The notes under the pieces were generated by a model. The model was given only the letters and a program-made list of their open reading frames with translations, was not told the origin of the DNA and did no database searches. From Methanomassiliicoccaceae archaeon UBA537 (GTDB lineage: Archaea; Thermoplasmatota; Thermoplasmata; Methanomassiliicoccales; Methanomethylophilaceae), in contig DATC01000053.1 of the NCBI GenBank assembly GCA_002504495.1, positions 1 through 43,477 on the forward strand: a DNA stretch of 43,477 nucleotides. The letters are read 5' to 3'. Below, one piece after another: positions 1,129 to 41,609 of this stretch. Every line of letters starts with the position of its first letter. Position 1 is the first letter of the stretch. The translations under genes and the position numbers were made by a program.

Positions 1129-2466
1129 ATGGGGCACGTATCGTATTCATCCTGCCGGAAGGCGGTCCTGGCGTTGGAGAACGACAGGTTCTATTTCGCA
1201 GCGCTAGCGATACTGCTCGCCGCCGTCGTGCTCCTGACGGTCAGATTCGCCATGTGGGGCGATCTCAACAACTACTACGTCCATGCAGGCGATGTCCTGG
1301 ACGGCCTCATGCCCTACAGCGAGGCTCCTTTCGAGTATCCCCCTCTGGCGCTGGTATTCATGCTCGTGCCCAGGATGCTGTCGTGGGATCTCGATTCCTT
1401 CTACTACATCTGCACGGCGCAGGCTTTGGTTTTCATCATCATAGGGGCGTTCCTGCTCGAACGCATCGCGGTGCCTCTGACAGGGTGCAGATGGAGGGTG
1501 CGCCTGGTCATGCTGGTGCTCGTGGCCGTGGGAAGCTATTTCCTCATCGCAAGGAACGACATCTATCCCACTGTGATCGCAGTGGCGGCCGTCTGGATGT
1601 TCCAGAACCGGAGGGTCGAGCTTGCGGCTCTTCTCCTTGCCTTGGCCGCGATGATCAAGCTGTATCCCGCGATCTTCCTGTTGCCGATGGTGGCCGTCCT
1701 TATGATTCGGAGGGATGTCAGAGGAGTGGTCGCGATGGTTCTCATCGCAGCGACGACCTGTCTGCTGGTGGAGCTCCCGTTCCTCCTGGCGGATCCTTCC
1801 ACCGCGTTCTCGTATCTCACGTACCATTCCGACAGGGGTCTGCAGGTGGAGTCCGTGGCGGGAGGCTTCTTCCTGCTGTACGGGAAGATCTTCCCGAGCG
1901 ACATATATGTCGCATATGGATTCGGATCGGACAACGTGGTCGGTGTCGCCCCGGATGCATTGGCGTCGTTCATGAACCCGGTGATGTACTGCATCCTCCT
2001 GGCCTTCATCGTCGCCATCGGATTCCGCATCGCTCGCTCTCAGGTGGGGCGCGACGATGCATTGGTCCTTGTCGGCGCGATCTGTGCTGCCATGGTGATG
2101 CTGTTCATAACATTCAGCAAGGTGTATTCGGCCCAGTATGTGATATGGATCCTTCTGCTGATCCCGTTCACTCAGGCATCGTGCTTCGACGAAGGTCGCA
2201 GGAACAGGATCCTCATGACGATGCTGCCCTTCGGGCTGTTCACCTTCCTCAGCTACTCCTCGTACCACGTGTTCGGGGTATTGGATATGAATTGGATAAG
2301 CACGGCTATGATTTTCGTGAAGAACATCTTCCATATCGTTCTCACGATGGAGATCGCGGACCTGTGTTGGAACGGATGCAGGGCATCATCGGCCTCGGTT
2401 CCGGCAATTCGATTTCGAGGGATAAGATGGACGGTGACTATACAGGTCATTGGCGCGACCAGCTAA
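1129..2466 (+). CDS. GT-C fold membrane glycosyltransferase (GT87/DUF2029, PimE-like mannosyltransferase)
   Basis: Polytopic membrane protein with GDLNNYY, PY...FEYPPLA, RND, IKLYP, RGLQVES and KVYSAQY motifs. An in-frame CGA at 2410-2412 would end it just before the next gene. Confidence 0.85.
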   Translation: MGHVSYSSCRKAVLALENDRFYFAALAILLAAVVLLTVRFAMWGDLNNYYVHAGDVLDGLMPYSEAPFEYPPLALVFMLVPRMLSWDLDSFYYICTAQALVFIIIGAFLLERIAVPLTGCRWRVRLVMLVLVAVGSYFLIARNDIYPTVIAVAAVWMFQNRRVELAALLLALAAMIKLYPAIFLLPMVAVLMIRRDVRGVVAMVLIAATTCLLVELPFLLADPSTAFSYLTYHSDRGLQVESVAGGFFLLYGKIFPSDIYVAYGFGSDNVVGVAPDALASFMNPVMYCILLAFIVAIGFRIARSQVGRDDALVLVGAICAAMVMLFITFSKVYSAQYVIWILLLIPFTQASCFDEGRRNRILMTMLPFGLFTFLSYSSYHVFGVLDMNWISTAMIFVKNIFHIVLTMEIADLCWNGCRASSASVPAIRFRGIRWTVTIQVIGATS

Positions 2467-4761: not shown

Positions 4762-4850
4762 TATTCGTTCGATTGGCGTTGTGCTCGAATTCGTTTCCTA
4801 TGAATCGTTATATACGGGAACGGTAATGCTCGGTGATAGGAATTCGAAGT

Positions 4851-4873: not shown

Positions 4874-4892
4874 CCGAATGCAGAGGCATATC

Positions 4893-6248
4893 ATGGCAGA
4901 CAATGAGATGACAGTCGAGCAGCGCCTCGAGCTGGCCAAGAAGCCCGGCAAGGACGCTATGGTCCTTCACAAGTTCTACAAGGGAAAGATCGAGACCGTT
5001 CCGAAGGCCTGTGTCAGGTCCTTCGACGATTTCGCCATATGGTACTCTCCCGGAGTCGCTGAACCGTGCAAGGACATCGCCCAGAATCCCGACATGGTAT
5101 ACGAGCACACTTGGAAGTGGAACACCGTCGCCGTGGTCTCCGACGGAACTCGCGTCCTGGGGCTCGGGAACATCGGTCCCGAGGCCGCCATGCCCGTCAT
5201 GGAGGGCAAGGCCATGCTGTTCAAGTACCTGGGCGGAGTGGACTGCGTCCCCATCTGTCTGGATACGAAGGATCCCGACAAGATCATCGAGACCGTCAGG
5301 CTCCTCGCTCCCTCCTTCGGAGGAATCAACCTCGAGGACATCCAGAATCCCAAGTGCTTCGACATCCTCGATGAGCTCAGGAAGGACTGCAAGATCCCCG
5401 TGTGGCACGACGATCAGCAGGGAACCGCGACTGTCGAGGTCGCCGGAGCCATCAACGCCATGAAGCTCGTCGGCAAGAAGCTCGAGGACGCCAATATAAC
5501 CGTGGTCGGAGCGGGCGCGGCATCCATAGCCATCGCCAGGCTCATGCTCGCCACCGGATTCAAGCCGGAGCACCTGTGCATGGTCGACTCCAAGGGCATC
5601 CTCAACAACGAGAGGGACGACGTCAGGGGCTCCTTCCGCCAGAAGTGGGAGATCTGCGAGAAGACCAACGGAGCAGGGAAGCGCGGAGGCCTCAAGGAGG
5701 CCATGGAGGGCGCCGACATCGTCATCGCCGCATCCAAGCCCGGTCCCGGCACGATTCCCAAGGAGTATGTCAAGCTCATGGCGGACGACCCCATCATCTT
5801 CGCGACGGCCAACCCCGTTCCTGAGATCTGGCCCTGGGAGGCCAAGGAGATGGGATGCAAGGTCTTCGCCACCGGCAGGTCCGACTTCCCCAACCAGGTC
5901 AACAACAGCATGGGATTCCCCGCCATCTTCAGGGGAGTCCTGGATGTCCGCGCCAAGACGATCACCGACGAGATGTGCATCGCAGCCGCCACGGAGCTGG
6001 CCAAGTGCGCCGAGGAGAAGGGCCTCACCGAGGACTACATCATCCCGACAATGGCCGAGTCCGAGGTCTTCCCCAGGGAGGCCGCCGCGGTCGCCCTCAA
6101 GGCCCAGGAGCAGGGCGTCGCCAGGCTCAAGCTGAGCCGCCAGGAGCTCATCGAGCGTGCCGAGGCCATGATCAACAGGTCCAGGTCGCTCACCGCCCGC
6201 ATGATGCAGGAGGGCTACATCCCCGACTGCAGCCGCGTGCTGGAATGA
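4893..6248 (+). CDS. NAD(P)-dependent malic enzyme (malate oxidoreductase)
   Basis: YSPGVAEPC, SDGTRVLGLGNIG, PVMEGK, NLEDI, HDDQQGT, GAGAA, ANPVPEI and TGRSDFPNQVNN motifs. Confidence 0.95.
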   Translation: MADNEMTVEQRLELAKKPGKDAMVLHKFYKGKIETVPKACVRSFDDFAIWYSPGVAEPCKDIAQNPDMVYEHTWKWNTVAVVSDGTRVLGLGNIGPEAAMPVMEGKAMLFKYLGGVDCVPICLDTKDPDKIIETVRLLAPSFGGINLEDIQNPKCFDILDELRKDCKIPVWHDDQQGTATVEVAGAINAMKLVGKKLEDANITVVGAGAASIAIARLMLATGFKPEHLCMVDSKGILNNERDDVRGSFRQKWEICEKTNGAGKRGGLKEAMEGADIVIAASKPGPGTIPKEYVKLMADDPIIFATANPVPEIWPWEAKEMGCKVFATGRSDFPNQVNNSMGFPAIFRGVLDVRAKTITDEMCIAAATELAKCAEEKGLTEDYIIPTMAESEVFPREAAAVALKAQEQGVARLKLSRQELIERAEAMINRSRSLTARMMQEGYIPDCSRVLE

Positions 6249-6255
6249 GCCGAAC

Positions 6256-6280
6256 GGAGGGGTCCTCCCCTCCTATTTCC
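6256..6280 (+). terminator. hairpin plus pyrimidine tract after malic enzyme
   Basis: GGAGGGG-TCCT-CCCCTCC followed by TATTTCC. Confidence 0.5.
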
Positions 6281-6370
6281 CGTTCACTTCTCCTGCTTCC
6301 GTCCGGGTCCGCATCCGGACGGAAGCCTATGTCTATATGATAGTACCTCGTTGCCCCCTCAATTCGAGGG

Positions 6371-7312: not shown

Positions 7313-8424
7313 CCGATATACCGCTCAACGAGCAGCTCCACGGCTTCATAGACGACCTGGAGCGCACCCTCGACCATCACGGGGAGCCGATCGACTGCGA
7401 TGCTGTGGTCCTCTGCGGCGTCGGCGGATCCGCGGTCAGCGGGGACGTCGCGGCCGATTGCTATCGCATGATCTCTCCCGTGCCCCTCTACACCGTCAAG
7501 AATCCCGACATCCCCAACTGGGCCGGATCGCGCACACTCGCCATAGTGTCCAGCTATTCCGGCAACACCGCGGAGACGCTCGAGATGTACAGGCAGGCCA
7601 AGGAGAAGGGCTGCACCGTCGTAGCTCTGACATCCGGAGGCAGGCTGAAGGATCTCGCCACCCTCAACGGGGACAGGGTCATGCTCCTGCCGCCCTCCAT
7701 GCAGCCGAGGCATGCGATCGGATACATGATCGGCTACACCCTGGCGATCATCCGCGATGCGGGAGCTTCCGATATATCGGAGGAGATACGCGCGTTCCTG
7801 CCGGACCTCCGCGAGTGGAGGGACAGGGAGGCCATTCCAGATGGATGCCTCGCCAGAAGGATCGCGGACTCGTTCAAGGGCAAGGTCCCCGTCGTGTGCT
7901 CCGGACCCAGCATGAGGTCCGTCGCGTTCAGATGGAAGACGCAGATAAACGAGAACTCCAAGCGCGTCGCATTCTTCGATGCCGTACCGGAGTTCGACTC
8001 CTGCGACCTGGCCGCATGGGCCTCCTCGCATCGCGACAACTACGTCCTCATCCTGCTGATGGGATGCGACGAAGGCAGGGATCTGATGGAGATGTTCGAC
8101 AAGGAGCTGGAATCGGCCGGATCGTCCCATCTGGCGGTGAGGCTCGGAGGTTCGTCGCCTCTCGAGGACCTCTTCCGTGCGATAATCCTGGGGGACTACG
8201 TCTCGATGTACATGGCCCTCTCCAGAGGAATAGATCCGGCGGAGGTCAGGCCGGTCATGCAGATGAAGGCCAAGCTCTCGCAGCGCTGGCCGATCGACGG
8301 TCCGACATCCCGGCGAGGGTCTCCTCGAACTCCTTCGCGAATCTCTTCGAGCGCTCCTCCGCCTTCTCAGGATCCGAGGATTCGGAGTATATCCTGTATT
8401 TCGGCTCCGTTCCGGAGGGCCTGA
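7309..8424 (+). CDS. bifunctional phosphoglucose/phosphomannose isomerase family protein (lacks catalytic His motif)
   Basis: ATG 7309 overlaps the upstream TGA (ATGA). Motifs GVGGSAVSG, SSYSGNTAET, TSGG, RWKTQINENSK and DPAEVRPV...K. Homology ends near 8290; first in-frame CGA is at 8314. Confidence 0.85.
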   Translation: MTDIPLNEQLHGFIDDLERTLDHHGEPIDCDAVVLCGVGGSAVSGDVAADCYRMISPVPLYTVKNPDIPNWAGSRTLAIVSSYSGNTAETLEMYRQAKEKGCTVVALTSGGRLKDLATLNGDRVMLLPPSMQPRHAIGYMIGYTLAIIRDAGASDISEEIRAFLPDLREWRDREAIPDGCLARRIADSFKGKVPVVCSGPSMRSVAFRWKTQINENSKRVAFFDAVPEFDSCDLAAWASSHRDNYVLILLMGCDEGRDLMEMFDKELESAGSSHLAVRLGGSSPLEDLFRAIILGDYVSMYMALSRGIDPAEVRPVMQMKAKLSQRWPIDGPTSRRGSPRTPSRISSSAPPPSQDPRIRSISCISAPFRRA

Positions 8425-12667: not shown

Positions 12668-14023
12668 ATGGGCGAAGGCATGACAGGTTCGGCGATCAGA
12701 TGGGCGCACGCCCACCCTTTGCTCCTGATGCTGGTCCTCGCCCTCGTGTTCAGGCTCGTCCTGATGCCGTTCCTCGTCTACGACTTCGACATCTATCATT
12801 GGGCTCTCATCATAGAGAACATCCAGGCCGGGAACGGTCTCTACGAGGTCGCCGGATACTACTACACGCCCGTATGGGGCTATATCCTGGGCGCGATGAC
12901 GGGCCTTCTGGATCTGTTCGGAGGCCTGGACGTCTTCGGAGTCAGGTACACCGAGCTCCTGCCGGTGGAGGACCTCGTCTGCAGGTTCCACATAGCCACC
13001 ATCACCACGTTGGACTTCAACATCGCGATGAAGGTCCTCCTTGTGGCCTGCGACTTCGCCGTGGCGGCCCTGATCCACAGATTCACCATCGATCTGACCT
13101 CGGATCCGAGGAAGGCTCTGTTCGCGACGGCGCTGTGGCTCTTCTGTCTTCCCGTCGTCTACATGTCGGCTATCCAGGCGCAGTTCGATACGATCTCCGC
13201 GCTGTTCACGCTGCTGACCGTGTACCTGCTGTACAGGGACCAGCCTCTTCTGGCGGGCATGATGTTCTCGTGCACCGTGCTCCTGAAGTTCTTCCCTGCC
13301 TTCATGATCCTGGTCCTCGTGGCGTACATATGGACGAAGCACAGGGACGACGGCAGGGCTGTCGGGATGATCGTGCAGGCCGTCCTCGGAGCAGTCGTAG
13401 TCTTCATCGTGTTCTATGCGCCGCAGATCGTCGACGGGAACTTCCTGGACAGCATATCCTTCGTCACGGGCAGGGTCGGCACATCCAATGCCCTCGGCAG
13501 CGTCGCGAAGGTCGCCATAATGCTGGTCGGAACCGTCGTCTCGGGGCTGGCCATGCTCCGTTCCGAGGGGGACCTCGACAGGAGGCTGATCCGGTGCTGC
13601 ATGGTGGCGCTGGTCTTCGTCGTGCTTCCGTCGACGACTCCGCAGTACCCTATCGTGTTCATCCCGCTGCTCGCGATGGTCATAGCCGACGGCTGCGGCG
13701 CCTACATGCGCCCGTACATCGTCATGACGGTGGGCGCCGTGCTCAATGCGCTGACCGTCAACAACTTCTCCCTTCTGCTCTCGATCTCGGAGGAATCGTC
13801 CCTGGTGTCCCCGTCGTGGGTCGTCTCGGCGATGCAGTCCCTCGAGTCCGTCACGTTATTCGGCGAGACGATCGTCACCGTGTCGTGCGCGGTCGCCGGA
13901 GTCGTCCAGGCGATCGGGACGCTCTTCATACTCATGGTGTTCTTCAGGGCCGGCATCGAGCGCGCGGTCCCGAGGTCCCGTCGTCTTCTCGATCTGATAG
14001 GTGGTCAACATGTCGAACGATAA
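12668..14023 (+). CDS. GT-C fold membrane glycosyltransferase (PIG-M/GT87-like)
   Basis: YDFD, GYYYTPVWGY, QAQFD, LKFFP and TPQY motifs; ends CGA-TAA. Confidence 0.82.
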   Translation: MGEGMTGSAIRWAHAHPLLLMLVLALVFRLVLMPFLVYDFDIYHWALIIENIQAGNGLYEVAGYYYTPVWGYILGAMTGLLDLFGGLDVFGVRYTELLPVEDLVCRFHIATITTLDFNIAMKVLLVACDFAVAALIHRFTIDLTSDPRKALFATALWLFCLPVVYMSAIQAQFDTISALFTLLTVYLLYRDQPLLAGMMFSCTVLLKFFPAFMILVLVAYIWTKHRDDGRAVGMIVQAVLGAVVVFIVFYAPQIVDGNFLDSISFVTGRVGTSNALGSVAKVAIMLVGTVVSGLAMLRSEGDLDRRLIRCCMVALVFVVLPSTTPQYPIVFIPLLAMVIADGCGAYMRPYIVMTVGAVLNALTVNNFSLLLSISEESSLVSPSWVVSAMQSLESVTLFGETIVTVSCAVAGVVQAIGTLFILMVFFRAGIERAVPRSRRLLDLIGGQHVER

Positions 14024-16728: not shown

Positions 16729-17388
16729 TCATTCGAGATATCGATCTTCGTGACAGAGACTCGCCTCGATCGCATAGTAGTACCGCGGGTCGCAGGTGCT
16801 GAAGTAGGAGTACCATGCATCGAGCGTCTCTGGTGAGAAGACCGACAGACGTTCGAGAATCAGCTTCGACCACAGGAGCCCTCCCGGAGAGCCTGCCGTT
16901 ATGACGCCGCCGTCGCTCACGGCGGGGACATCCTTATACATCGGGCCTCCGCGATAGCTTGGAGAGAAATGCTCGAGGAAGCCGGGGCCGTTGCTCGTGT
17001 GCAGGCGGCGATCCAGGATGCCGCGGTCCGCCAGCGCCACCGTGGATCCGCATATCGCGCACACCGTCCCGCCCTTGGAGACGATATCCTCTGCGGCATC
17101 CATGATGCGCGCTTTCCTGAGCTCGGGCCATGCCGACGATCCAGGGAGGATCAGGACGGCATTCTCATCTGTCTCTATGTCGGGAACCGCGATGTCCGGA
17201 ACCATGTTCATCCCGCCCATCGAGCGCCTGGCTTCCTTCGTATCGCCGACGGTCGAGAAGCGCACCTCAGGCGCGTCATCGCGGAAGAACCTCTTCGAAC
17301 ACAATTCCGGGGTCACATGACCGATCTCCCAGTCCGCCATCCCGTTCTGGATGTAGACGTACACATCGTACGAACTTCTGTCGCTCAT
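16729..17388 (-). CDS. DJ-1/PfpI family (class I glutamine amidotransferase-like) protein
   Basis: ADWEIG, LILPG...W, AICG (nucleophile Cys) and HTSN motifs; CGA four codons before the TGA. Confidence 0.88.
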   Translation of the reverse strand: MSDRSSYDVYVYIQNGMADWEIGHVTPELCSKRFFRDDAPEVRFSTVGDTKEARRSMGGMNMVPDIAVPDIETDENAVLILPGSSAWPELRKARIMDAAEDIVSKGGTVCAICGSTVALADRGILDRRLHTSNGPGFLEHFSPSYRGGPMYKDVPAVSDGGVITAGSPGGLLWSKLILERLSVFSPETLDAWYSYFSTCDPRYYYAIEASLCHEDRYLE

Positions 17389-17548: not shown

Positions 17549-18115
17549 ATGGGTTCTATCGGAGGTCTGTACAGGGATCATCGCGAAGGCATCTCCTACG
17601 TGTTCTGGGGAGCGCTGACGACCGTAGTAAACCTCCTGGCGTACATGGCGTTCGTCCGCTGGTGCGGGATAGGGGACTTCCTGAGCAACATCCTTTCCTG
17701 GGTAGTCGGGGTGGTGTTCGCCTTCGCCGTCAACAAGTGGTTCGTCTTCAGGAGCCGCGGACTCGGGCTCAGGACCATCGTATGGGAGCTCGGTTCGTTC
17801 ACAGGGTCCAGGATTTTCACAGGTGTGATCGCATGGGTCCTGTTCCCGATCATCAATGCGACCGCGATAGGCACCTGGAGTCTTGATTTCTGGATCCTCG
17901 GCGCGATCCTCGGCACCAGCGGAATGGGAGCGAAGATCATCACCAGCCTGATCGAGATAGTTCTGAACTGGGTGCTCAGCAAGCACTTGGTGTTCAAGAA
18001 GGGCCAGTCCGAGAGCGAGCGACGTCCTCGAGTATCTCCTCGAGATGCCCGATGTGCCTGTTCCACGTGTAGGTCTCGGCCTGCCTTCTTGCCAGGATGC
18101 CCTTCTCCTGTCTGA
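17549..18115 (+). CDS. GtrA family membrane protein (lipid-linked sugar flippase-like)
   Basis: YxFWGxLTTVVN, FAFAVNKWFVF and LNWVLSKHLVFKK. Homology ends near 18000; the in-frame CGA at 18020 precedes a low-quality tail overlapping the convergent gene. Confidence 0.88.
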   Translation: MGSIGGLYRDHREGISYVFWGALTTVVNLLAYMAFVRWCGIGDFLSNILSWVVGVVFAFAVNKWFVFRSRGLGLRTIVWELGSFTGSRIFTGVIAWVLFPIINATAIGTWSLDFWILGAILGTSGMGAKIITSLIEIVLNWVLSKHLVFKKGQSESERRPRVSPRDARCACSTCRSRPAFLPGCPSPV

Positions 18116-20967: not shown

Positions 20968-21987
20968 ATGGATGGGATACATTACAGGGCCAGGGCTCCG
21001 TTGAGGATCGGGCTGGCAGGAGGAGGTACGGACGTGGAGCCGTACGCCTCCAAGAAGGGCGGTGCTGTTTTCAACACGACTATCAACCGTTATGCGTACT
21101 GCACGATAACGCCCACCTGCGATCATTCCATGTCCGTCATCTCCACAGATTACGGAAAGTACAGCGCGGACCTTCAGGACGGCCCGCTCCCCCTCGACGG
21201 GAATATGGATCTGATCAAGGCGGTCACCAACCATTTCGGCGTCACCGACGGATTCAAGATGTTCCTGCAGTCGGAGGCTCCTCCGGGGTCGGGGCTCGGA
21301 GGCTCCTCCACCGTGATAGTGTCGATCATCGCCGCGATGTGCGAGTGGCTCGACATCAGGATGTCGGGGTACGAGATGGCCAAGCTCGCGTACAAGCTCG
21401 AGAGGGAGGATATAGGCCTCAAGGGCGGGAAGCAGGACCAGTACGCCGCGGTGTTCGGAGGGTTCAATCTGATGAAGTTCGGCGCCGACAGGGTGGATGT
21501 CAACCGTGTGAGGATAGACCAGGATGCCATAAACGAGCTCCAGTACTGCTCTCTCCTGTGCTACACCGGCACGGCGCGCGAATCCGCGAAGATAATCGAA
21601 TCCCAGGTCAAGAAATTCAACGAGGGGCAGAATGAGATCGCTCTGGACAGGACCAAGGCGCTCGCGGAATCGATGGCCGTCGCCATGGAGAAGGGCGAGA
21701 TCCACAGGGTCGGAGAGATCCTCGACGAGGCGTGGAGCTACAAGAAGCAGTTCTCCGACAAGGTAAGCAATCCCGGCATAGACGCGATGTACAACGCAGC
21801 CATCGAGGCCGGAGCCATCGGAGGCAAGGTCTCCGGAGCCGGAGGTGGCGGATTCATGTACTTCATATGCCGTTACGATCGCAAGTACAACGTCGCCAAG
21901 GTTCTGGGCCAGATGGGTGCCAAGGTCACCGACTTCATGTTCGAACCGCAGGGCGTCGTTTCATGGAGATATCCAAATGACCGATGA
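20968..21987 (+). CDS. hddA: D-glycero-alpha-D-manno-heptose-7-phosphate kinase (GHMP family)
   Basis: RAPLRIGLAGGGTD, PPGSGLGGSS, GGKQDQYAA.FGG and GGKVSGAGGGG motifs; ends CGA-TGA. Confidence 0.88.
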   Translation: MDGIHYRARAPLRIGLAGGGTDVEPYASKKGGAVFNTTINRYAYCTITPTCDHSMSVISTDYGKYSADLQDGPLPLDGNMDLIKAVTNHFGVTDGFKMFLQSEAPPGSGLGGSSTVIVSIIAAMCEWLDIRMSGYEMAKLAYKLEREDIGLKGGKQDQYAAVFGGFNLMKFGADRVDVNRVRIDQDAINELQYCSLLCYTGTARESAKIIESQVKKFNEGQNEIALDRTKALAESMAVAMEKGEIHRVGEILDEAWSYKKQFSDKVSNPGIDAMYNAAIEAGAIGGKVSGAGGGGFMYFICRYDRKYNVAKVLGQMGAKVTDFMFEPQGVVSWRYPNDR

Positions 21988-23020
21988 GATCAGAGCCGAG
22001 CTCGCCAAAGCCGTGGATGCCATCTCGAATATAGATCCGTCCCAGATCAGGGCGGCCGCCGACGTCATCCGCGACGCGTTCAGAAGAGGCAACCAGGTCA
22101 TGTTCTGCGGGAACGGAGGCTCTTCGGCCGATGCGCAGCATATCGCGGCCGAATTCTCCGGAAGATTCAAGATGGAGAGGCCCGCGCTTCCCGGCGTGTG
22201 CCTGTCCAACATCGCCCCTGTGACCGCCATAGGCAACGACTACTCCTACGACCTGGTCTTCAAGAGGCAGGTCGAGGGTCTATGCAGAGAGGGGGACGTC
22301 CTCGTCGGAATGTCCACATCCGGCAATTCCAAGAACGTCGTCCTCGCCATGGAGGAGGCCAAGTCCAAGGGCGGGCTGACCGTGAGCTTCACCGGCGACG
22401 GAGGCGTGATGAGGGACATGGCCGACTGCGCCGTGATCATCCCCTCCCACGACACCGCCCACATCCAGGAGGGCTACCTCTGCGCCTGCCACATCATCGC
22501 AGGCATCGTCGAGAGGGAGCTCTTCGGCAGCCGAGCCGTCTTCATAGACCGCGACGACACCATCGTCGAGGACGTTCCGTACTGCGACGATCCGGACAAG
22601 CTCAGAATGTTCCCGGACGTTCCGGCCGCCATAGGCAGGCTGAACGCCGCAGGGTATCTGGTCATACTGATCACGAACCAGTCGGGCATCCATCGCGGAT
22701 ACTTCGACGAGGAGACCCTCGCCAGGATACACGGGCGCCTGAAGGACATGGTATCGGCCGGAGGCGGCCGCATAGACGACATCTTCTACTGTCCCCACAC
22801 TCCCGATGAGCATTGCTCGTGCAGGAAGCCGGAGACCGGGATGGGACTGGCGGCGATCGAGAAGCATCACATCGATCCCTCGAGGTCCTGGATGGTCGGC
22901 GATAAGGACAAGGACGTGGAGTTCGGCAGAAGGCTCGGCTGCAGGACCGTCAAGGTCGGAGACGGGGTATCCTTCTCCGATGCGGTCGACGAGATCCTCT
23001 CCGCCGACGGCCGTCTCTGA
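21977..23020 (+). CDS. gmhA: fused sedoheptulose-7-P isomerase (GmhA) and heptose-1,7-bisphosphate phosphatase (GmhB)
   Basis: GmhA part: CGNGGSSADAQH, AIGNDY, STSGNS, IQE. GmhB part: FIDRDDT, TNQSGI, CPH...CSCRKP, GDKDKD. CGA at the domain junction (22532). Confidence 0.9.
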   Translation: MTDEIRAELAKAVDAISNIDPSQIRAAADVIRDAFRRGNQVMFCGNGGSSADAQHIAAEFSGRFKMERPALPGVCLSNIAPVTAIGNDYSYDLVFKRQVEGLCREGDVLVGMSTSGNSKNVVLAMEEAKSKGGLTVSFTGDGGVMRDMADCAVIIPSHDTAHIQEGYLCACHIIAGIVERELFGSRAVFIDRDDTIVEDVPYCDDPDKLRMFPDVPAAIGRLNAAGYLVILITNQSGIHRGYFDEETLARIHGRLKDMVSAGGGRIDDIFYCPHTPDEHCSCRKPETGMGLAAIEKHHIDPSRSWMVGDKDKDVEFGRRLGCRTVKVGDGVSFSDAVDEILSADGRL

Positions 23021-24056: not shown

Positions 24057-25590
24057 AACCCTGCGATCGGCATGGCGGCAGTGCGCCGCTGTGCCGTCGC
24101 ACCACTTCCGGAAGAGGCGGCAACGGCGGAACTTCCTGTTTCGCATACATCGCATCCATGAACGCCGCCGCGAAGATCGGATAGTGCTCCACTCCGTTCT
24201 CGTCCACACGGATGTTGCCGTTCTCCAGCTTGATGAACCTCTTCACGGGATACACAGTGTACCGAGGGTCCGTGCGCAGCTTCTTCATGGAGCCGGATCT
24301 GCGGTTCTTCCCTGATTTGACCTCTACGGTGGCCAGATCATCGCCGAGCACGACAAGGAAGTCGATCTCGATCCGATCCCTGAACTGCTTTCCATCGGCA
24401 TCGATTATCTTGTCGCGTTCGAAGTAATGGAGCTGGAATCCGCATTTCTCGAGCATATTGGCCACAGCGTTTTCGATGATCGCGCCGGCATTGATTCCTT
24501 CATTTCTGCTTAGAATCCCTAGCCGCAATCTGTCATTGGGCATGGACGATTGGAATGCGCTTATCAGGATCCCCGTATCGAAGCAGTACATCTTCATCGA
24601 GCCGTCGTGCCTGCTGTTCAGAGGCAGAACGGGTTCGGTCACGTTGCGGCACAAGGTGGCCATTCCTGCCCCTTCGATCCATCTGATCGCATCCTTGTAC
24701 TCTCTTGCTCCGGAATTATCGAGAGGTCTTGTCAAGCATCTTTCTGCTATAGAGTATGTGAATTTCCTATTGTCTCTTCCGAGTTGTTCCGGCATGGAAT
24801 CGATGCACGCGCGGATGCGAGGTGTGATGGAAGGCGGCGAATAGTCGGCGATATCGATGATGTAGTCCCGTCTGATTCTATCGCATTCGCGATCGATCAG
24901 ATCCCAATCGGGCTGTCCGTTCAACGAATCCGCAATTACTGCAGGCATTCCTCCGATCGCCAAGTATCTTAGGAAATACTGCTCCAAGCTTTTCAAAGAG
25001 GTCTCGTCGAACGGTACCTTGTCACGTATATGGGCCCTGATGTTGTTTGTCGTCGTTTCAGACATCCCCAATGCCCATAGGTACTCTTCGAAATCGAGTG
25101 CGTAGAGCCTGATGATATCTCTGTAACCCATCGGTGATACCCTTCTGCAATCCGACATGATCGAATCCAGCGGGTTCCATTCATTCCCACCATCTGCAGA
25201 CCTTTTGAATCCGTCCACGGTGAGTAGGGATCCGGATGCGATGATGTCGGCTCTTCCGTCTGCAACAAGAGGTTTTATTGCATACATCGCGCCCGGACAT
25301 AGCTGGATCTCGTCCAGGAAGAGCACGCTATTATCTTTCGACGGTTTGAAACCAGGATAATGTACGCTGAGTCTGTCGTAGATGCTGTCAGCGCTGATGT
25401 CTTCGGAGAATATCGATCTGAGCTCAGGTTGCAGACTGAAGTCCAAGTGCAGATACTGCCGGTAATGCGTCTTTGCAAATTCATCCAGAATATAGGTCTT
25501 GCCCACTTGCCTGCTCCCGGTGAGGATGAGACACTTCTTGTTGGGATCCGATTTCCATTTGAGCAGAGTCTCGGTGATCTTCCTTCTCAC
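24049..25590 (-). CDS. AAA_14 / DUF4143 ATP-binding protein with C-terminal PD-(D/E)XK-like domain
   Basis: GSRQVGKT, FLDEIQ, SGS, GGMP, KMY.FDTG and EIDF...EVKSG motifs; GTG start; appears lower in GC than flanks; CGA at 24099-24097. Confidence 0.88.
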   Translation of the reverse strand: MRRKITETLLKWKSDPNKKCLILTGSRQVGKTYILDEFAKTHYRQYLHLDFSLQPELRSIFSEDISADSIYDRLSVHYPGFKPSKDNSVLFLDEIQLCPGAMYAIKPLVADGRADIIASGSLLTVDGFKRSADGGNEWNPLDSIMSDCRRVSPMGYRDIIRLYALDFEEYLWALGMSETTTNNIRAHIRDKVPFDETSLKSLEQYFLRYLAIGGMPAVIADSLNGQPDWDLIDRECDRIRRDYIIDIADYSPPSITPRIRACIDSMPEQLGRDNRKFTYSIAERCLTRPLDNSGAREYKDAIRWIEGAGMATLCRNVTEPVLPLNSRHDGSMKMYCFDTGILISAFQSSMPNDRLRLGILSRNEGINAGAIIENAVANMLEKCGFQLHYFERDKIIDADGKQFRDRIEIDFLVVLGDDLATVEVKSGKNRRSGSMKKLRTDPRYTVYPVKRFIKLENGNIRVDENGVEHYPIFAAAFMDAMYAKQEVPPLPPLPEVVRRHSGALPPCRSQGFN

Positions 25591-27299: not shown

Positions 27300-27659
27300 A
27301 TGAGGAGCTGCAAGACTAACCCTCAGCTCATCGCCACTATCAGTGACCTGAAGGCGAAGACGAGGGAGACCGGCAGTGCCATCTGGCGAGATGTTGCGCT
27401 TCGGCTTGAGAAGCCTAGCAGGAACTGGGCCGAAGCGAACCTCAGCAAACTTGAGCTTTACGCGCAGGATGGAGAGACTATCCTCGTCCCCGGTAAGGTT
27501 CTCGCCGCAGGCACAATAAGCAAGAAGATCACCGTCGCCGCGTACGGATTCTCCGACGCAGCCGCCAAGGCCATCGTCGCCGCCGGCGGAAAGACCATGT
27601 CCCTCGAGGAGCTGGCCGAGGCCAACCCCAAGGGAACCGGTGTCAGGATCATGAGGTGA
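27300..27659 (+). CDS. rpl18e: 50S ribosomal protein L18e
   Basis: KTNP.L, IWRDVA..LEKP, VPGKVL and NPKG motifs; TTTATAA promoter at 27242; contains an internal CGA at 27387. Confidence 0.95.
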   Translation: MRSCKTNPQLIATISDLKAKTRETGSAIWRDVALRLEKPSRNWAEANLSKLELYAQDGETILVPGKVLAAGTISKKITVAAYGFSDAAAKAIVAAGGKTMSLEELAEANPKGTGVRIMR

Positions 27660-28772: not shown

Positions 28773-28845
28773 GGGCCCGTGGGGTAGCTTGGTATCCTTC
28801 GTGCTTGGGGTGTACGTAACTCCGGTTCAAATCCGGACGGGCCCA
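28773..28845 (+). tRNA. tRNA-Pro(GGG)
   Basis: Acceptor stem GGGCCCG/CGGGCCC-A; anticodon arm CGTGC-TT-GGG-GT-GTACG; T arm TCCGG-TTCAAAT-CCGGA; no encoded CCA. Confidence 0.95.
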
Positions 28846-28962
28846 CTCATCCCTTGTCTTTCCGTCTCCATTGTAGTCGATGGTTTGCTCCATCATTGTT
28901 CTACCGGGTTTTCACCGACCTCCCTTCTTCGCCTTTAAGAACGTCTGCGCGTAGATGCCGTC

Positions 28963-29505
28963 ATGTGCAATCCTCTAGCCGACATCTGCGACGGCGCCGT
29001 ACACGAGCTGGAGGCAATACTAGGTCGCGACAGATGCGGGGCGATCGTGTGCGGTCGTTCGATGCTACGCTTCAAGGATCCGATCGATGGAGAGTCTCCG
29101 TTGATCATGACCTTCCGCGTGATGGTGGTGCCTGTCATGGCGCGTCTCGGATATGTGCAGAGGGCATTCGATTCCACCGGTTTCGAAGAGTGCGTTGTAG
29201 CGGTCGTACCGATGAATCATCCGTTGAACGATGCGGAGGCGCAGGCGTGTTCGGCTCTCAAACGCTCGAATGTACGCAGAGGGGTCGCTACAGACGGATT
29301 CCTCTGGGTGCTGATGGATCGCGGGCCTTCCGGACCGAAAAGGCGCACTGTAGCCGATATCAGATCCTATTACATGGATGCCCTGATCCGCAGAAGATTC
29401 ATGCAGGCCGTAGAATCGGACGATCGGTACGCGGAGGAGTTCGTCAGGGCGTTCGGAAAGATCGATGGCACAGGAGATCGCGAAGGGACGCGACCTCCTC
29501 CGTGA
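28963..29505 (+). CDS. hypothetical protein, possibly a degenerate HsdR N-terminal (PD-(D/E)XK) fold
   Basis: L..A..Q....L......GVATDGFLW resembles the Q...Y...TNG..W pattern, but there is no E-x-K. Confidence 0.5.
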   Translation: MCNPLADICDGAVHELEAILGRDRCGAIVCGRSMLRFKDPIDGESPLIMTFRVMVVPVMARLGYVQRAFDSTGFEECVVAVVPMNHPLNDAEAQACSALKRSNVRRGVATDGFLWVLMDRGPSGPKRRTVADIRSYYMDALIRRRFMQAVESDDRYAEEFVRAFGKIDGTGDREGTRPPP

Positions 29506-31282: not shown

Positions 31283-31925
31283 CGAGGCCGAATGCATCGG
31301 CTATCTTGAGGACGCCGGATGCAAGCGCAGGGTCGTCATCCACTGCTGCACGGTCGAGGCCGTCGCCAAGGAGATGATCTCCCGCATAGACGGCGTGGAC
31401 CGCGATCTGGTCTTGGCGGGAGCGCTGCTCCACGACATAGGCAGGTCGAAGGACCATTCCATCATGCACGCGTACGTGGGGTCGCAGATCGCCGCGTCGT
31501 ACGGGCTCCCGGTCGCTCTCCAGGATATAATCCGCAAGCATACCGGCGCAGGGCTCGATGCGGAGGATGTGGAGGAGATGGGCCTGCCTCCGGCAGACTA
31601 CATGCCGAGCACACTGGAGGAGAAGATCGTGGCCCATGCGGACAACATGGTCAGCGACAACCGCGTCGTGGATCACATGCATTCCGTGGAGAAGCTCTTC
31701 AACAAGGGGGCCGTCCGCGGAGCCGAACGCGTGGAGGATCTGCATCGCGAGCTCTCCCTCCTCTACGGAGAGGATCTGGACTGCATCCCCGGGAAGATCG
31801 GGGAGTATCCCGAGCTGGAGCTCGCCAAACGCATGGGGATCCTGCGATCCCCGATTTCTTCACAGGACCGTCGGGCTTTTCGTCCGCGGGCCTGTTCGTC
31901 ATTTTTCTCCGAATCCTGCCTTTGA
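31263..31925 (+). CDS. HD/HDIG metal-dependent phosphohydrolase (TIGR00295-like)
   Basis: TTG start after GAGGGGG; H...V, LLHDIGR, H, HTGAG and EEKIVAHADN motifs; likely true end at CGA 31845. Confidence 0.85.
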   Translation: MSNTIPDEAECIGYLEDAGCKRRVVIHCCTVEAVAKEMISRIDGVDRDLVLAGALLHDIGRSKDHSIMHAYVGSQIAASYGLPVALQDIIRKHTGAGLDAEDVEEMGLPPADYMPSTLEEKIVAHADNMVSDNRVVDHMHSVEKLFNKGAVRGAERVEDLHRELSLLYGEDLDCIPGKIGEYPELELAKRMGILRSPISSQDRRAFRPRACSSFFSESCL

Positions 31926-31964: not shown

Positions 31965-32276
31965 ATGGTAGCAGAACTCGATGGTAACACATTCGAATCA
32001 TTCGTGAAGTCGAACGGAATCGCGGTCGTCGACTGCTGGGCCCCTTGGTGCGGCCCCTGCAGGCGCATGGGACCCATCGTCGACGAGGCGGCCGCCGATC
32101 TCGAAGGCAGGGCCGCGGTCGCCAAGCTCAATACCGATGAGAACGGCGCCATAGCCGAGAAGTACCGCATCGATGCGATTCCGACCCTGCTCTTCTTCAA
32201 GAACGGGGAGCTCGCGGAGACGCTCGTCGGACTGAGACCCAAGGAAGACATAATCGCCATCGTGGACAGGCTCTGA
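31965..32276 (+). CDS. trxA: thioredoxin
   Basis: WAPWCGPC and IPT motifs. Confidence 0.95.
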   Translation: MVAELDGNTFESFVKSNGIAVVDCWAPWCGPCRRMGPIVDEAAADLEGRAAVAKLNTDENGAIAEKYRIDAIPTLLFFKNGELAETLVGLRPKEDIIAIVDRL

Positions 32277-37076: not shown

Positions 37077-37145
37077 TCGATCTCGCGAAGCGCACCTACC
37101 AAGTTTAAATGCGAGCTTAACTTACACGGTCGAGAGGCATGGATC

Positions 37146-37601
37146 TTGTTCGAGCTGCAGGTCGTTAGCAACACACCGATGACCGGGGAGGACGACATAT
37201 ACGTCGTCGCGGAGACATTTCTGATGCAGATCGGGTATCTCCCGAAAGGCTACGATCCGAAGACCGGCGTCATCAAGGTGAGGGACAGCGTGCCGTACAG
37301 GCTCTTCATGGACTACCTCGTCGCCCACCCCGCCAAGGCATGGACCGTGGAGGACCTGGCCTCCCTGCTGGGGACCACGAAGCCGACGATCTACCGCCAC
37401 ATAAACAAGCTGAAGTCCATGGACCTCCTGGAGGCCGTGGACGTGGATTCAGACGGGCAGACCCGCAAGGGGTACCGCATAAGGTACGGGGACCTCGTGA
37501 AGGCGTGGAGCTTCACCGAATCCAACGTGCAGATGGCCATGGAGAACTACCGCAAGTCCGTAGCGCATCTGCAGGAACTCATGAAAGAGAGGCGTGAATG
37601 A
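37146..37601 (+). CDS. winged-helix transcriptional regulator
   Basis: TTG 37146 after a TTTAAAT box (37104) and GAGG; WTVEDLASLLGTTKPTIYRHINKL HTH. Confidence 0.75.
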   Translation: MFELQVVSNTPMTGEDDIYVVAETFLMQIGYLPKGYDPKTGVIKVRDSVPYRLFMDYLVAHPAKAWTVEDLASLLGTTKPTIYRHINKLKSMDLLEAVDVDSDGQTRKGYRIRYGDLVKAWSFTESNVQMAMENYRKSVAHLQELMKERRE

Positions 37602-37852: not shown

Positions 37853-39380
37853 GCCTCTGGACCTGCTCTCCGATGAGCTCATCGAAGCGGTCAGGACCGG
37901 GAAGGTCGACGACCGCGATTCCTTCCAGAACCTCAAGCTCAAGCTCTGCAAGAAGCACGGTCTGTCCGGCGTCCCGCCGAACTCCGATGTTCTGGCCCGC
38001 ACCCCGGAGGACCTGAGGCCTCTCCTCCTTCCGTTCCTCATCAAGAAGCCCTCGCGCACCGTCAGCGGAGTGGCCGCGGTGGCGGTAATGACGTCGCCCC
38101 ACGACTGCCCCCACGGAAGATGCGCGTACTGTCCCGGCGGAGTCTCCAACGGATCGGCGCAGTCGTACACGGGCAAGGAGCCGGCGGCGAGGAGGGCCGC
38201 GCGCGACGCCTTCGATCCATGGCTGCAGGTGACCGACCGCGTCCGCCAGCTGGAGGAGATCGGCCACAGCGCAGGGAAGGTGGATCTCATAATCATGGGC
38301 GGGACCTTCACAAGCAGGGATCCGGAGTATCAGGAGTGGTTCGTCAAGCGCTGCTTCGACGCCCTCAACGGCCGCGACTCCGATACGCTGGAGGAGGCGC
38401 AGAGGATCAACGAGACGGCATCCCGCAGATGCGTCGGGATGACCGTGGAGACCCGTCCGGACGTGTTCACGGACGAGCAGATCGAGCGGGCCATGCGCCT
38501 GGGGGCCACCCGCGTGGAGCTCGGAGTGCAGATCCTCGACGACGATATCCTGGCCGGCATGGAGCGGGGGCACGGCACCGCGGAGGTCCGCGACTGCACC
38601 GCGAGATGCAGGAGCCACGGTCTGAAGGTCTGCTACCACATCATGCCCGGGCTGCCCGGGTCCGATCCGGACCATGACCTCGAGTGCTTCAGGAAGGTGT
38701 TCGACGATCCCGCGTACCGTCCGGATATGCTGAAGTTCTACACCCTGCTGGTCGTCGCAGGGACCCGCGTCCACGAGATGTGGGAGCGCGGAGAGTATGT
38801 TCCGTACGACGAGGCGACGGCGACGGAGCTCCTGGCGAGGATGAAGGCCATCGTCCCCGACTACGTCCGCATACAGAGGGTCCAGAGGGACATCCCCGCC
38901 ACGGAGATCGTCGCAGGGATAACCAAGAGCAACATCCGCCAACCGGTCCTTGAGCTGATGAGGATGCGCGGGACTCCGTGCAGATGCATCCGCTGCAGGG
39001 AGGTGGGGCGTTCGGAGGACATCGTGGACCTCGATGCGGCCGAGCTCTGCGACGAGGTCTACGAGGCCAGCGGGGGGACGGAGTACTTCATATCGTTCAC
39101 GAGCGGGGACCGCATAGTCGGATACGTCCGCCTCAGGCTGGATTCAGGCGACGCCGCCACCATACGCGAGCTGAAGGTGTTCGGGCATCCGGCTGCGATA
39201 GGGGAGGACGGCGACATACAGCACCGCGGATTCGGTCGGAGGCTCGTCTCCGAGGCCGAGCGCATAGCACGCGAGTCGGGCAGGAGGCGCATAAGGGTCA
39301 CCAGCGGCGTAGGTGTCCGCGGATACTACCGCTCCCTAGGATTCTCCGAGGATCTCCCGTACATGGCCAAGGATCTGCGA
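37845..39380 (+). CDS. elp3: tRNA uridine(34) acetyltransferase Elp3 (radical SAM + GNAT)
   Basis: CPHGRCAYCPGG, QSYTG.EP, MGGTF, ETRPD, QRDIP, CIRCREV, RELKV, QHRGFG, SGVGVR.YY and PYMAKDL. End placed at CGA 39378-39380; the standard-code ORF runs on to TAG 40085. Confidence 0.95.
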
Positions 39381-41609
39381 TCGCCCGTAGAACGGGTTGT
39401 CGTTCCAAGGGGTCCTTCTTCTTCTGAGCGAGCGCCCCATGGCCTCGTAGGCCTCGGCGGATTCCCTGGAGACCGACGGGGCTATCTCCTCCAGCGCGGA
39501 ATCGAAGTGCTTCTGGAGCACCCCGTTCGCGCCCCTGTCCTCGCGATAGGCGCAGAGCGCCGCCTCCCTGCAGAGCGCCGCGAGGTCCGCTCCGGTGTAC
39601 CCGTCGGTAGAGGCGGCAACGGAATCCAGGTCCACGCCGTTCAGCGGCATCCTCGACGTGTGTATCCTGAGGATCGAGCGTCTGGATTCCAGGTCGGGCA
39701 TGCCGACGAGGACCAGGCCGTCGAACCTTCCGGGTCTCAGAAGGGCCGGATCCACGGCGTCGGGACGGTTGGTCGCGCCTATGACGGTCACGCGGCGCGG
39801 ATCGCCCACGCCGTCCATCTCCGTGAGCAACTGGGCCACGATCCTCTCCGACCCCTCGGAGCCGCCGGATCCTCTGGCGGGGGCGATGGAGTCCAGCTCG
39901 TCGAAGAACACGATGCACGGGGACATCTGCTTGGCCTTGCGGAATATCCTCCGGACCGTCTTCTCGGATTCGCCGAACCATTTGCTGGCGATCTCCGGTC
40001 CGCTGACCGATATGAAGTTGCATCCCGATTCGTTGGCCACGGCCTTGGCGATCAGCGTCTTCCCGGTGCCCGGGGGGCCGTATAGGAGGATCCCCCTCCC
40101 CGGCTCGATGCCCAGCCTCTCGCAGGCGTCTTCTCCGTCGACGGACATCACGCATTCGTCTATGCGGCGTCTGACGTCGTCCAATCCGCCGATGTCGCTC
40201 CATGACACCTTGGGGATCTCGACCAGCACCTCCCTCATGCCGCTGGGCTCGACCTCCGAGAGCGCGGCGGAGAAGTCGTCCATGGACACGCGCAGGGATT
40301 CGAGCATCTCCGATGGGATGGCCTTGTCCAGGTCCATCTCCTCGATGCGCGTGCTGACGCAGTGCAGAGCGGCCTCCCTGCATAGAGCGGCCAGGTCCGC
40401 GCCCGCGAAGCCGTTGGTGACGGCCGCGAGCCTCTCCGCTGTGACATCGGCAGTCAGCGGCATGTCCCTCATGTGCACGGACAGGATCTGCGCCCTGCCG
40501 TCGATCCCGGGGATGCCGATCTCCATCTCCCTGTCGAATCTCCCGGGGCGTCTGAGGGCGGGATCTATCGACCCCTCGCGGTTGGTGGCTCCTATGACCA
40601 CGACGCCTCCTCTTCCTCCGAGGCCGTCCATCAGGGCAAGGAGCTGGGCGACCACGCGCCTCTCCACTTCTCCCGAAGCGTCCTCCCTGTCGGGGGCTAT
40701 CGAATCGATCTCGTCGAGGAATATGATGCTCGGGGCCTTATCCTCGGCCTTCCTGAAGATCTCCCTGAGGCGCTCCTCGCTCTGTCCGTAGTACTTGCCC
40801 ATTATCTCGGGGCCGCGGACGGAGAAGAGGGTCGCGCCCGATTCGTTGGCTATCGCCTCTGCAAGGAGCGTCTTCCCGGTGCCGGGGGGACCGTAGAGCA
40901 GGACACCCTTGGGTGCCTCGATGCCCAGTCTCTCGAACAGCTCGGGGTGCTTCAGAGGCAGTTCGATCATCTCGCGCATGCGTCCGAGCTCCTCGTCCAG
41001 TCCGCCGACGTCGTCGTATGTGATGCGGCGCCCTCCCTTCTTCTCGCCGCAGGCCTCCTGCTCTTCCGACGGTTGGACATCGGCGACGTCCTTCACTGAT
41101 ACGACGGTGTCCGGACGCACGATGACCGGTCCTTCGGGGACTGTGGAGGAGACGTAGAACGTGGAGCGGTTGCCTGTAAGGGCGATATTGGGTACTATGA
41201 TGTCTGTGCCGGCCACCAGCGGGCGGTTGAGCAGTCCTTTGAGGAACAGGCGTTCGATGTCGTCCTCGAATCTGATCCTCTTGCCGTCGGGTATGTTCGG
41301 TGCCAGGACGATCTTCTCGGCGGGAGGGGGCTCGCATCTGCTAACCTCCACGTTCTCGTCGACGCTGACGCCCGCGCCGGTGCGGGTGAGGCCGTCGATG
41401 AAGATAAGTCCGCGCCCCTCGTCCTCCGGGTCGCACTTGAAGACCTTGGCTACGACGGAGCGCTTCCCGGTTATCGATACGGTGTCGCCGAGCTCCGCAC
41501 CGAGTGCCCTGCGGGACGCGGAGTCCATTCTGGCGCGCCCGTATCCAGCTTCGTTCTGCGATTTCGCTCTCGCGACCTTGAGGGTGATCGAATCCGGCAT
41601 ATCGTGCAT
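39336..41609 (-). CDS. cdc48: CDC48/VAT family AAA+ ATPase
   Basis: N domain plus two AAA modules (GPPGTGKT twice, DEID/DELD, RPGRFD twice); start ATG 41609 or 41600; natural end PFYG followed by CGA at 39383-39381. Confidence 0.95.
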   Translation of the reverse strand: MHDMPDSITLKVARAKSQNEAGYGRARMDSASRRALGAELGDTVSITGKRSVVAKVFKCDPEDEGRGLIFIDGLTRTGAGVSVDENVEVSRCEPPPAEKIVLAPNIPDGKRIRFEDDIERLFLKGLLNRPLVAGTDIIVPNIALTGNRSTFYVSSTVPEGPVIVRPDTVVSVKDVADVQPSEEQEACGEKKGGRRITYDDVGGLDEELGRMREMIELPLKHPELFERLGIEAPKGVLLYGPPGTGKTLLAEAIANESGATLFSVRGPEIMGKYYGQSEERLREIFRKAEDKAPSIIFLDEIDSIAPDREDASGEVERRVVAQLLALMDGLGGRGGVVVIGATNREGSIDPALRRPGRFDREMEIGIPGIDGRAQILSVHMRDMPLTADVTAERLAAVTNGFAGADLAALCREAALHCVSTRIEEMDLDKAIPSEMLESLRVSMDDFSAALSEVEPSGMREVLVEIPKVSWSDIGGLDDVRRRIDECVMSVDGEDACERLGIEPGRGILLYGPPGTGKTLIAKAVANESGCNFISVSGPEIASKWFGESEKTVRRIFRKAKQMSPCIVFFDELDSIAPARGSGGSEGSERIVAQLLTEMDGVGDPRRVTVIGATNRPDAVDPALLRPGRFDGLVLVGMPDLESRRSILRIHTSRMPLNGVDLDSVAASTDGYTGADLAALCREAALCAYREDRGANGVLQKHFDSALEEIAPSVSRESAEAYEAMGRSLRRRRTPWNDNPFYGRSQILGHVREILGES

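Follow-up and report, generated by a model that had tools for sequence, protein, structure and literature searches.

The reassignment of a sense codon to termination is known from mitochondria, where AGA/AGG, TCA and TTA act as stops (NCBI tables 2, 22 and 23). Stop codons with a dual meaning are represented by UGA/selenocysteine, UAG/pyrrolysine and the context-dependent codes of ciliates and trypanosomatids, with a short-anticodon-stem tRNA in Blastocrithidia, and the bacterial gene of release factor 2 (prfB) is autoregulated through an in-frame UGA. For the codon CGA, yeast eRF1/eRF3, competing with tRNA-Arg, is reported to release the peptide also where only one terminal CGA is present (Wada and Ito 2018, PMC7379694), and the UGA-biased substitutions L123R/F/Y at the x of the YxCxxxF motif are described as enhancing this release (PMC7379694). 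In two hydrothermal-vent archaeal assemblies, CGG was found to encode Trp and conserved domains to be devoid of CGA; the preprint raises CGA as a stop as a possibility, without a test, and states that tRNA-UCG was not found (Melnykov 2026, bioRxiv 10.64898/2026.04.02.715157). Here we analysed a stretch of 43,477 nucleotides (the window; contig DATC01000053.1 of assembly GCA_002504495.1, Methanomassiliicoccaceae archaeon UBA537), for which a first reading of the letters, hereafter the sequence-only reading, had proposed that CGA terminates genes. Comparison with the remainder of the genome and with its relatives supports the view that many genes functionally end at CGA, possibly as an undescribed variant of the genetic code. 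In the genus concerned (g1, family f1) CGA is probably a codon of dual meaning that mostly terminates, with aRF1 acting against a weakened tRNA-Arg(UCG).

The window belongs to genome G000 (1.61 Mb in 150 contigs, 59% G+C, 81% complete), which was compared with the complete genome G015 of the same genus (1,593,503 bases) through 920 reciprocal best hits; here and below, related genomes are non-independent samples. At the position of the G015 stop, strict alignments (n=414) placed TGA 237 times, CGA 66 times, TAA 10 times, TAG five times and another codon 96 times in G000, and among these 96 the seven other one-step neighbours of TGA together contributed 8, none of them more than 4. When an ungapped extension of up to 12 codons was allowed (n=725), TGA was found at 314 ends and CGA at 103, with no other codon exceeding 23; triplets of the same frequency in non-coding frames were found at the same 725 ends only 7 (CGG), 7 (TCG) and 10 (GGA) times. 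The 428 terminator pairs at identical offset included 96 of the type (CGA,TGA) and five of the type (CGA,TAA). The check suggested by the sequence-only reading, the position of CGA relative to the stops of relatives, was thereby borne out, as CGA aligns with the TGA or TAA of orthologues far above comparable codons, and the alignments show CGA and TGA as interchangeable at gene ends in evolution. Within sense columns of the G000-G015 alignments CGA occurred in 37 of 266,168, mostly at the extreme start or end of an alignment, and CGG paired with Arg about like other Arg codons. The base following the 103 aligned CGA ends was T in 63 cases, G in 22, C in 13 and A in 5, versus T 110, G 99, A 70 and C 35 after the 314 aligned TGA ends, an excess of T after CGA with a chi-square p = 5e-6. 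The next standard stop after these CGA ends lay 1 codon on in 12 cases, 2-4 codons in 15, 5-19 codons in 27, 20-99 codons in 25 and at least 100 codons in 21, the contig end or a run of N coming first in three.

Genome-wide, genes of G000 were delimited with a home-made gene finder based on codon usage, which ignores start codons and in whose model CGA was masked. In frame, CGA accounted for 450 of 453,444 codons (0.99 per 1000), and out of frame, over the remaining five frames, for 34.75 per 1000; CGG, CGT and CAA are far less depleted than CGA with its approximately 35-fold deficit. With the first 60% of each coding segment disregarded, the first terminator out of the set TAA/TAG/TGA/CGA was CGA in 481, TGA in 864, TAA in 67 and TAG in 38 of 1450 genes. 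The mean codon score dropped from +0.280 before to -0.322 after the first CGA (n=249, at least 20 codons following) and from +0.395 to -0.321 across TGA ends (n=858), and the score was negative in 88% of the downstream stretches for either codon. Letting CGA end genes reduced the adjacent pairs that overlap by more than 60 nucleotides from 157 (table 11) to 10 and the total gene overlap from 67.9 kb to 6.4 kb, which extends to the whole genome the removal of long overlaps noticed in the window; in the control G015 the number of such pairs went from 24 to 8. Tails reached 12.75 and 125 codons at the 75th and 95th percentiles in G000, and 4 and 19 codons in G015 with the same gene finder, which does not itself create tails, since G015 shows normal short ones. 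Among 473 genes scoring up to their stop, TAG was seldom found at the end of coding potential (5 TAG versus 370 TGA), a scarcity that fits avoidance of TAG related to pyrrolysine (Pyl).

These data bear on the explanation, named already in the sequence-only reading, that CGA is ordinary Arg, that stops have drifted from TGA to CGA without harm and that the extended proteins are made. A tRNA-Arg(UCG) does exist, and a standard stop follows within 4 codons at 27 of the 103 CGA ends, as such tolerated stop losses would have it. Nevertheless, out of the eight one-step neighbours of TGA only CGA is enriched (66 vs at most 4), the tails score as non-coding although 21 of 103 run for at least 100 codons, and reading on not only yields the 157 long overlaps but also fuses genes across a promoter-like spacer. 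Stop loss would also leave the roughly 35-fold depletion of CGA elsewhere in frame unaccounted for. Nor are tail lengths conserved: the open frames read on after the CGA of Cdc48 measure 820, 1377, 1316 and 1013 residues in different species, so these tails are not conserved products. We therefore hold widespread non-functional stop loss to be implausible, with very little chance of being correct.

The CGA codons of the window that enter the argument, on both strands, are the following.

2410..2412, plus strand: end of a GT87 glycosyltransferase gene (Pfam GT87), candidate terminator; next base T, TAA 17 codons on
8294..8296, minus strand: end of a glmM-like (PGM/PMM) gene, Pfam PGM_PMM I-IV
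8314..8316, plus strand: end of a PGI/PMI-like (bact-PGI_C) gene, Pfam profile end at residue 326 of 338
14018..14020, plus strand: end of a GT87-like gene, with TAA as the very next codon; uninformative alone
16741..16743, minus strand: DJ-1/PfpI gene, CGA 3 codons before TGA; uninformative alone
18020..18022, plus strand: end of a GtrA-like gene, Pfam GtrA profile end at residue 149 of 157
21982..21984, plus strand: end of a GHMP (hddA-like) kinase gene, CGA-TGA; aligned codon TGA in G013 and CGA in G010
22532..22534, plus strand: CGA at the junction of SIS (GmhA-like) and HAD (GmhB-like) domains, candidate read-through site; next base G
24097..24099, minus strand: CGA near the end of an AAA_14/DUF4143 gene, candidate terminator from Pfam and coding score; read-on of 15 codons
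25763..25765, minus strand: end of a GT2 (DPM1-like) gene, TGA 2 codons on; aligned codon TGA in G013 and CGA in G010
27387..27389, plus strand: sense CGA for the conserved Arg of IWRD in ribosomal protein L18e (Pfam Ribosomal_L18)
29462..29464, minus strand: end of a small winged-helix (CggR_N-like) gene; aligned codon TGA in G013 and CGA in G010
29491..29493, plus strand: hypothetical gene without a Pfam match, CGA 3 codons before TGA; uninformative alone
31845..31847, plus strand: end of an HD-domain gene, read-on of 25 codons
37074..37076, plus strand: end of an ABC ATPase gene before an in-frame HTH_20 gene (ABC_tran upstream, HTH_20 downstream)
39378..39380, plus strand: end of the Elp3 gene, GNAT domain stopping at residue 498 of 507
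39381..39383, minus strand: end of the Cdc48 gene after ...PFYG; codon after ...PFYG compared across the genus

All 15 gene-end CGAs listed by the sequence-only reading were present and in frame with the genes it had named, and Pfam agreed with the names GT87, PGI C-terminal SIS, GtrA, GHMP kinase, HD, ABC_tran, Elp3, PGM/PMM, DJ-1, AAA_14, GT2 and Cdc48. The pyrimidine reported after CGA at 14 of the 15 sites was likewise found (T 11, C 3, G 1). A self-trained codon-usage gene finder with CGA scored as neutral delimited 49 coding segments in the window, and coding potential ended at or near these CGAs: exactly at the codon at 18020, 1 codon earlier at 8296 and 15 codons upstream in the GT87 gene (2410). 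In order of position, reading on from CGA to the next standard stop adds 17, 35, 0, 30, 0, 3, 25, 174 and 234 codons on the plus strand and 12, 3, 15, 2, 5 and 14 codons on the minus strand. The longest of these extensions, the 234 codons after Elp3, runs antisense to Cdc48, in agreement with the long antisense tail pointed out earlier, and the 35 codons after 8314 run into the convergent glmM.

Six of the 15 sites (21982, 25765, 29464, 31845, 39378 and 39383) align exactly with a TGA or TAA of a relative, and at 8296, 8314 and 18020 the stop of the relative is only a few codons away. At 8296, CGA stands at the same position in G010 and TGA 3 codons upstream in G015; at 8314, G015 has TAA 6 codons upstream while the first terminator of G010 and G013 is CGA at -6 and -8; and at 18020, where read-on comprises 30 codons, G010 has TGA 4 codons later. 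The codon aligned with 31845 is TGA in G010, G013, G007, G008 and G015, TAA in G011 and CGA in G004, and that aligned with 39378 is TGA in G013, G006, G004, G007, G011, G008 and G015 and CGA in G010, G002 and G014. Seven other relatives have TGA 1-2 codons before the position of 29464, and G010 has TGA one codon before that of 14018. The sites 14018, 21982, 16743 and 29491, with a standard stop 0-3 codons later, carry little information alone, and for 2410, 16743, 24099 and 29491 no orthologue was found in the loci of relatives compared. At 37074, G010 carries CGA one codon later and G004 TGA 9 codons later, and the spacer between the ABC ATPase and HTH_20 holds two further in-frame CGAs and an A/T-rich TTTAAA. 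In this spacer (window 37095-37146) the TTTAAA lies about 35 to 40 nucleotides before a TTG in the HTH_20 frame and resembles an archaeal promoter that would serve a transcript with a short leader. Elsewhere in the window, ARAGORN identified a tRNA-Pro(GGG) at 28773-28846, and scanning the complete window against Rfam (gathering threshold) gave zero matches, with even that tRNA unmatched.

The same usage was observed in other members of the genus. CGA occupies orthologous stops in G010, G002, G018, G014, G006, G004, G008, G015, G044 and G070, and in G044 and G070 it is the stop of the aRF1 gene itself. In archaea, docking of Cdc48 to the proteasome relies on a hydrophobic-Tyr-X motif that has to stand at the very C-terminus; the codon after the ...PFYG of Cdc48 was TGA in 10 and CGA in 4 (G000, G010, G002, G018) of 14 genomes of the genus. 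The convergent stops of Elp3 and Cdc48 read TGATCA in relatives, CGATCG in G000, G010, G002 and G018, and TGATCG in G014. In DNA syntenic with the closest relative G010, G000 has TGA versus CGA at 32274 and 36307 and the reverse at 31845, and several further differences between the two in stops fall within 1-4 codons. Since an orthologous stop can be CGA in one sister species and TGA in another, and the differences run either way, an artefact of a single assembly is excluded. A systematic T-to-C miscall at stops, for instance through methylation at GATC as the sequence-only reading had considered, could draw on the CGATC found at 7 of the 15 window sites. That notion stayed unsupported, TGATC being common (5300 copies in the genome), and a sequencing or assembly error is barely conceivable given that the same usage occurs in at least 10 other species-level assemblies, including the single-contig G008 and G015, that sister genomes have CGA at different genes, and that miscalls would not yield the in-frame depletion or the features of tRNA and aRF1 described below.

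The extent of CGA usage differs among the genomes. In G015, 58 of 1493 genes had CGA as first terminator (roughly 4%, vs 33% in G000), none of the 34 ends compared in the sampled G007 was CGA (28 were TGA), and the samples of G013 and G104 contained no CGA end at G015-based ends. Within Cdc48, in-frame CGA was absent from 18 genomes of the genus and occurred 32 times in total in 12 genomes of six other families; samples of four sister genera contained 0.2 to 0.55 in-frame CGA per 1000 codons and those of two others 1.3 to 2.6. CGA ends may also occur sporadically outside the genus. In the orthologue of G015_724, three genomes of sister genus g10 (G089, G073 and G074) have CGA GCG at the position of the TGA of G015, where G000 has CGA. 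A sharp shift in Arg codons was also seen within g10, in which G082 uses CGG as its main Arg codon (145 vs 7 AGG among 4059 orthologue-aligned codons) and six other genomes have 3 to 11 CGG and 55 to 121 AGG.

The tRNA that reads CGA was examined next to the codon itself. The tRNA genes of G000 include tRNA-Arg(UCG), (GCG) and (CCU), and the complete G015 encodes the full set of five Arg tRNAs together with tRNA-Pyl(CUA). BLAST searches with the G015 tRNA returned mostly tRNA-Arg(GCG) and missed orthologues in the genus, and no synteny was found around the tRNA-Arg(UCG) gene between G000 and G015; the searches were replaced by a strict structural pattern that fixed only the D-arm, anticodon and T-arm and matched in 35 of 61 genomes of the genus. 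The 31-39 pair and U33 tune decoding efficiency. In G000, the anticodon loop of tRNA-Arg(UCG) is closed by an A31-A39 mismatch, and in G015 the near-universal U33 is replaced by C33. The anticodon arm was non-canonical in all 35 genes found, 27 of them with a 31-39 mismatch (A-A or C-A) in five stem sequences whose other four pairs covary, and eight with C33 in the loop CCUCGAC, whereas U33 and an intact 31-39 pair were present in each of the 13 tRNA-Arg(UCG) obtained from five sister genera. Because the stem pairs covary, the tRNA appears to have been kept functional, and the persistent defect, which arose by mutation in two or more ways, suggests that weak decoding has been selected for.

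The release factor itself looks ordinary. Each genome has one aRF1 gene; no second paralogue was detected among the genomes of the genus searched with a match, the second matches being partial fragments at contig ends that are consistent with a split gene. In G000 (contig C30, about 6170-6260), a run of N masks approximately 27 codons of the gene, and its GT-ELIS motif was inferred from relatives. An altered aRF1, one of the mechanisms offered by the sequence-only reading, found no match in the motifs, as NIKS and YRCDSxF are the same in 49 sequences from 7 families, including users of CGA as Arg. The sole genus-specific residue of the N domain is N in place of E before a PP motif. The R at the x of YxCxxxF is order-wide and might at most be a predisposition, not what distinguishes the genus.

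The aRF1 gene nevertheless contains a single in-frame CGA, at SIA[AS]-R-LK, 17 residues after NIKS and about 77 codons into the gene, with approximately 330 codons following. It was found in 34 of 36 genomes of the genus (28 of 30 loci plus G000, G007, G008, G013, G104 and G015), the two exceptions having CGC and AGA. The codons flanking it vary synonymously, and the Arg at +21 is encoded by CGC in 16, AGG in 14 and AGA in three cases. In other genera the same Arg is encoded by CGT, CGC, CGG, AGG or AGA, and by CGA in one of four genomes of genus g15 and in one genome of family f7. Fixation of so rare a codon in the gene of the release factor, in the very clade that has CGA at its gene ends, has the appearance expected of feedback of the prfB type, judged by its conservation.

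CGA is also translated elsewhere. The two internal CGAs recorded in the window by the sequence-only reading (27387 and 22532) are real. In L18e, 90 more, essential codons lie downstream of the CGA, and the motif ATC TGG CGA GAC AT (27378-27395) is kept, including its synonymous sites, in 28 of 29 genomes from 7 families across the order, which points to an older constraint or element at the nucleotide level inside the coding sequence; Rfam gave no match around this CGA at E values up to 1. The SIS-HAD frame (window 21977-23020) comprises SIS_2 at residues 9-140 and HAD at residues 200-336 with the CGA at residue 186 (Pfam), and no ATG, GTG or TTG is present between this CGA and the catalytic DRDD motif of HAD. 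The junction CGA is kept at the same position in G010 and G013, and partial read-through there could give a short and a fused product. A further sense CGA is conserved in the RNase P subunit p29. At the four sense sites (L18e, p29, SIS-HAD and aRF1) the base after CGA is G or C, compared with T at 61% of ends.

Taking the 103 aligned ends together with L18e and aRF1, we infer that CGA both ends genes and is translated in one genome. The proposal that CGA is a terminator is thus supported, with a correction: it would mostly terminate, as orthologue ends and non-coding tails indicate, and, since it is still translated at a few conserved sites, its meaning would be dual and not that of a pure stop. 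Mechanistically, the single aRF1 would compete kinetically with the weakened tRNA-Arg(UCG) for CGA in the A-site, the base at +4 tilting the outcome between termination and decoding. Termination would win in most contexts, above all at CGA-T, and the tRNA at the few conserved sites with G or C as the next base, i.e. L18e, p29, the GmhA-GmhB junction and aRF1. The CGA of aRF1 would then act as negative feedback, in which more aRF1 leads to more premature termination of its own synthesis. As to history, CGA may first have become very rare in the family and the tRNA weakened afterwards; changes from TGA to CGA at stops would then have been tolerable and have accumulated in GC-richer species such as the source archaeon. 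On balance we lean towards CGA being a fourth, context-dependent stop throughout the genus, read by an unmodified-looking aRF1 that competes with a purposely weakened tRNA and would sense its own activity through the CGA in its gene.

Several observations weigh against this picture. CGA is not absent from conserved sense positions (L18e, aRF1, p29 and the SIS-HAD junction), and the base after it is G or C at 35 of the 103 CGA ends as well. The loss of tRNA-Arg(UCG) considered in the sequence-only reading was not observed, the gene being present in G000 and 34 other genomes of the genus; with this tRNA still there and a CGA in L18e that has to be decoded, terminal CGAs are likely to be read through to some extent. 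Sister genera and families in which CGA is Arg have the same GT-ELIS, NIKS and YRCDSxF, and the compared sequences contain no change in aRF1 that would explain a new specificity. Around the aRF1 CGA, 35 sequences revealed no drop in synonymous variation, no shared fold and no SECIS- or PYLIS-like element.

The unchanged decoding motifs of aRF1, the non-canonical anticodon arm in 35 of 35 tRNA-Arg(UCG) and the great rarity of CGA through much of the family could also be claimed for an unassigned or hungry codon, at which the weak tRNA stalls the ribosome and a rescue route (aPelota/ABCE1 or similar), not aRF1, frees the peptide. Such a route would leave unexplained both the conserved, genus-specific CGA inside the aRF1 gene and the preference for T after terminal CGAs, a typical context effect of release factors. 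Stalling in one gene out of three would come at a high cost, a tRNA with the anticodon UCG is present, and Pelota-type rescue factors are not known to hydrolyse peptidyl-tRNA; we consider this explanation unlikely. C-to-U editing of mRNA from CGA to UGA, with a standard code, would explain why CGA stands at TGA positions and is avoided inside genes. It does not explain the altered tRNA-Arg(UCG) or the conserved CGA in aRF1 and L18e, we know of no C-to-U editing of mRNA in archaea, and editing is accordingly quite improbable. Competition between aRF1 and a weakened tRNA-Arg(UCG) remains the reading that we prefer.

In the full-text literature we found no report of a CGA stop in this lineage, the nearest being the suggestion made for the two vent assemblies, which are unrelated to it; the supplementary tables of genetic-code screens, which lay outside the search, may list CGA as uninferred. 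The large screen of 2021 is described as inferring amino-acid meanings only, and screens of this kind are described as giving no direct inference of stop codons. Unassigned CGG is reported for Mycoplasma capricolum (PMC8629427). If the dual meaning of CGA holds true, it would be the first reassignment from sense to stop in a cellular, non-organellar genome and, at aRF1, the first autoregulation of a release factor of that type in archaea, and it would mean that the termination machinery of a free-living organism is able to capture a sense codon. Stages of the process would be present within one genus, with roughly 4% of ends in G015 and 33% in G000, which would make codon capture versus an ambiguous intermediate directly testable. 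Gene calls made with table 11 would carry false C-terminal extensions, fusions and overlaps in approximately a third of the genes. Relatives in the family are described as the source of widely used PylRS/tRNA-Pyl pairs, and for this reason the decoding rules of the family matter for synthetic biology.

Among the known systems, the organellar reassignments from sense to stop resemble the present case in that a former sense codon is found at the stop positions of relatives and is nearly absent inside genes; they differ in that here the genome is that of a free-living archaeon of 1.6 Mb and the codon is CGA, and in that the cognate tRNA is kept in an altered form and a few sites still appear to be translated. 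With the dual-meaning stops it shares a codon that would terminate or be decoded by context and an unusual anticodon stem in the competing tRNA, but here a sense codon gains the meaning of stop, while the amino acid stays the original Arg. As in the misdecoding of CGA in yeast, a factor of the a/eRF1 family would face an inefficient tRNA-Arg, and the x of YxCxxxF is R in the aRF1 studied here; what is described in yeast as a weak side reaction in reporters would here be the apparent regular end of approximately a third of the genes. In contrast to the vent archaea, as far as these are described, CGG aligns with Arg, tRNA-UCG is present and the use of CGA as a stop is indicated by the alignment of orthologues. 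Finally, prfB and the aRF1 gene are alike in that a release-factor gene carries a conserved early in-frame codon which its own factor would read as stop, whereas a +1 frameshift is needed in prfB and simple read-through by tRNA-Arg(UCG) would suffice here.

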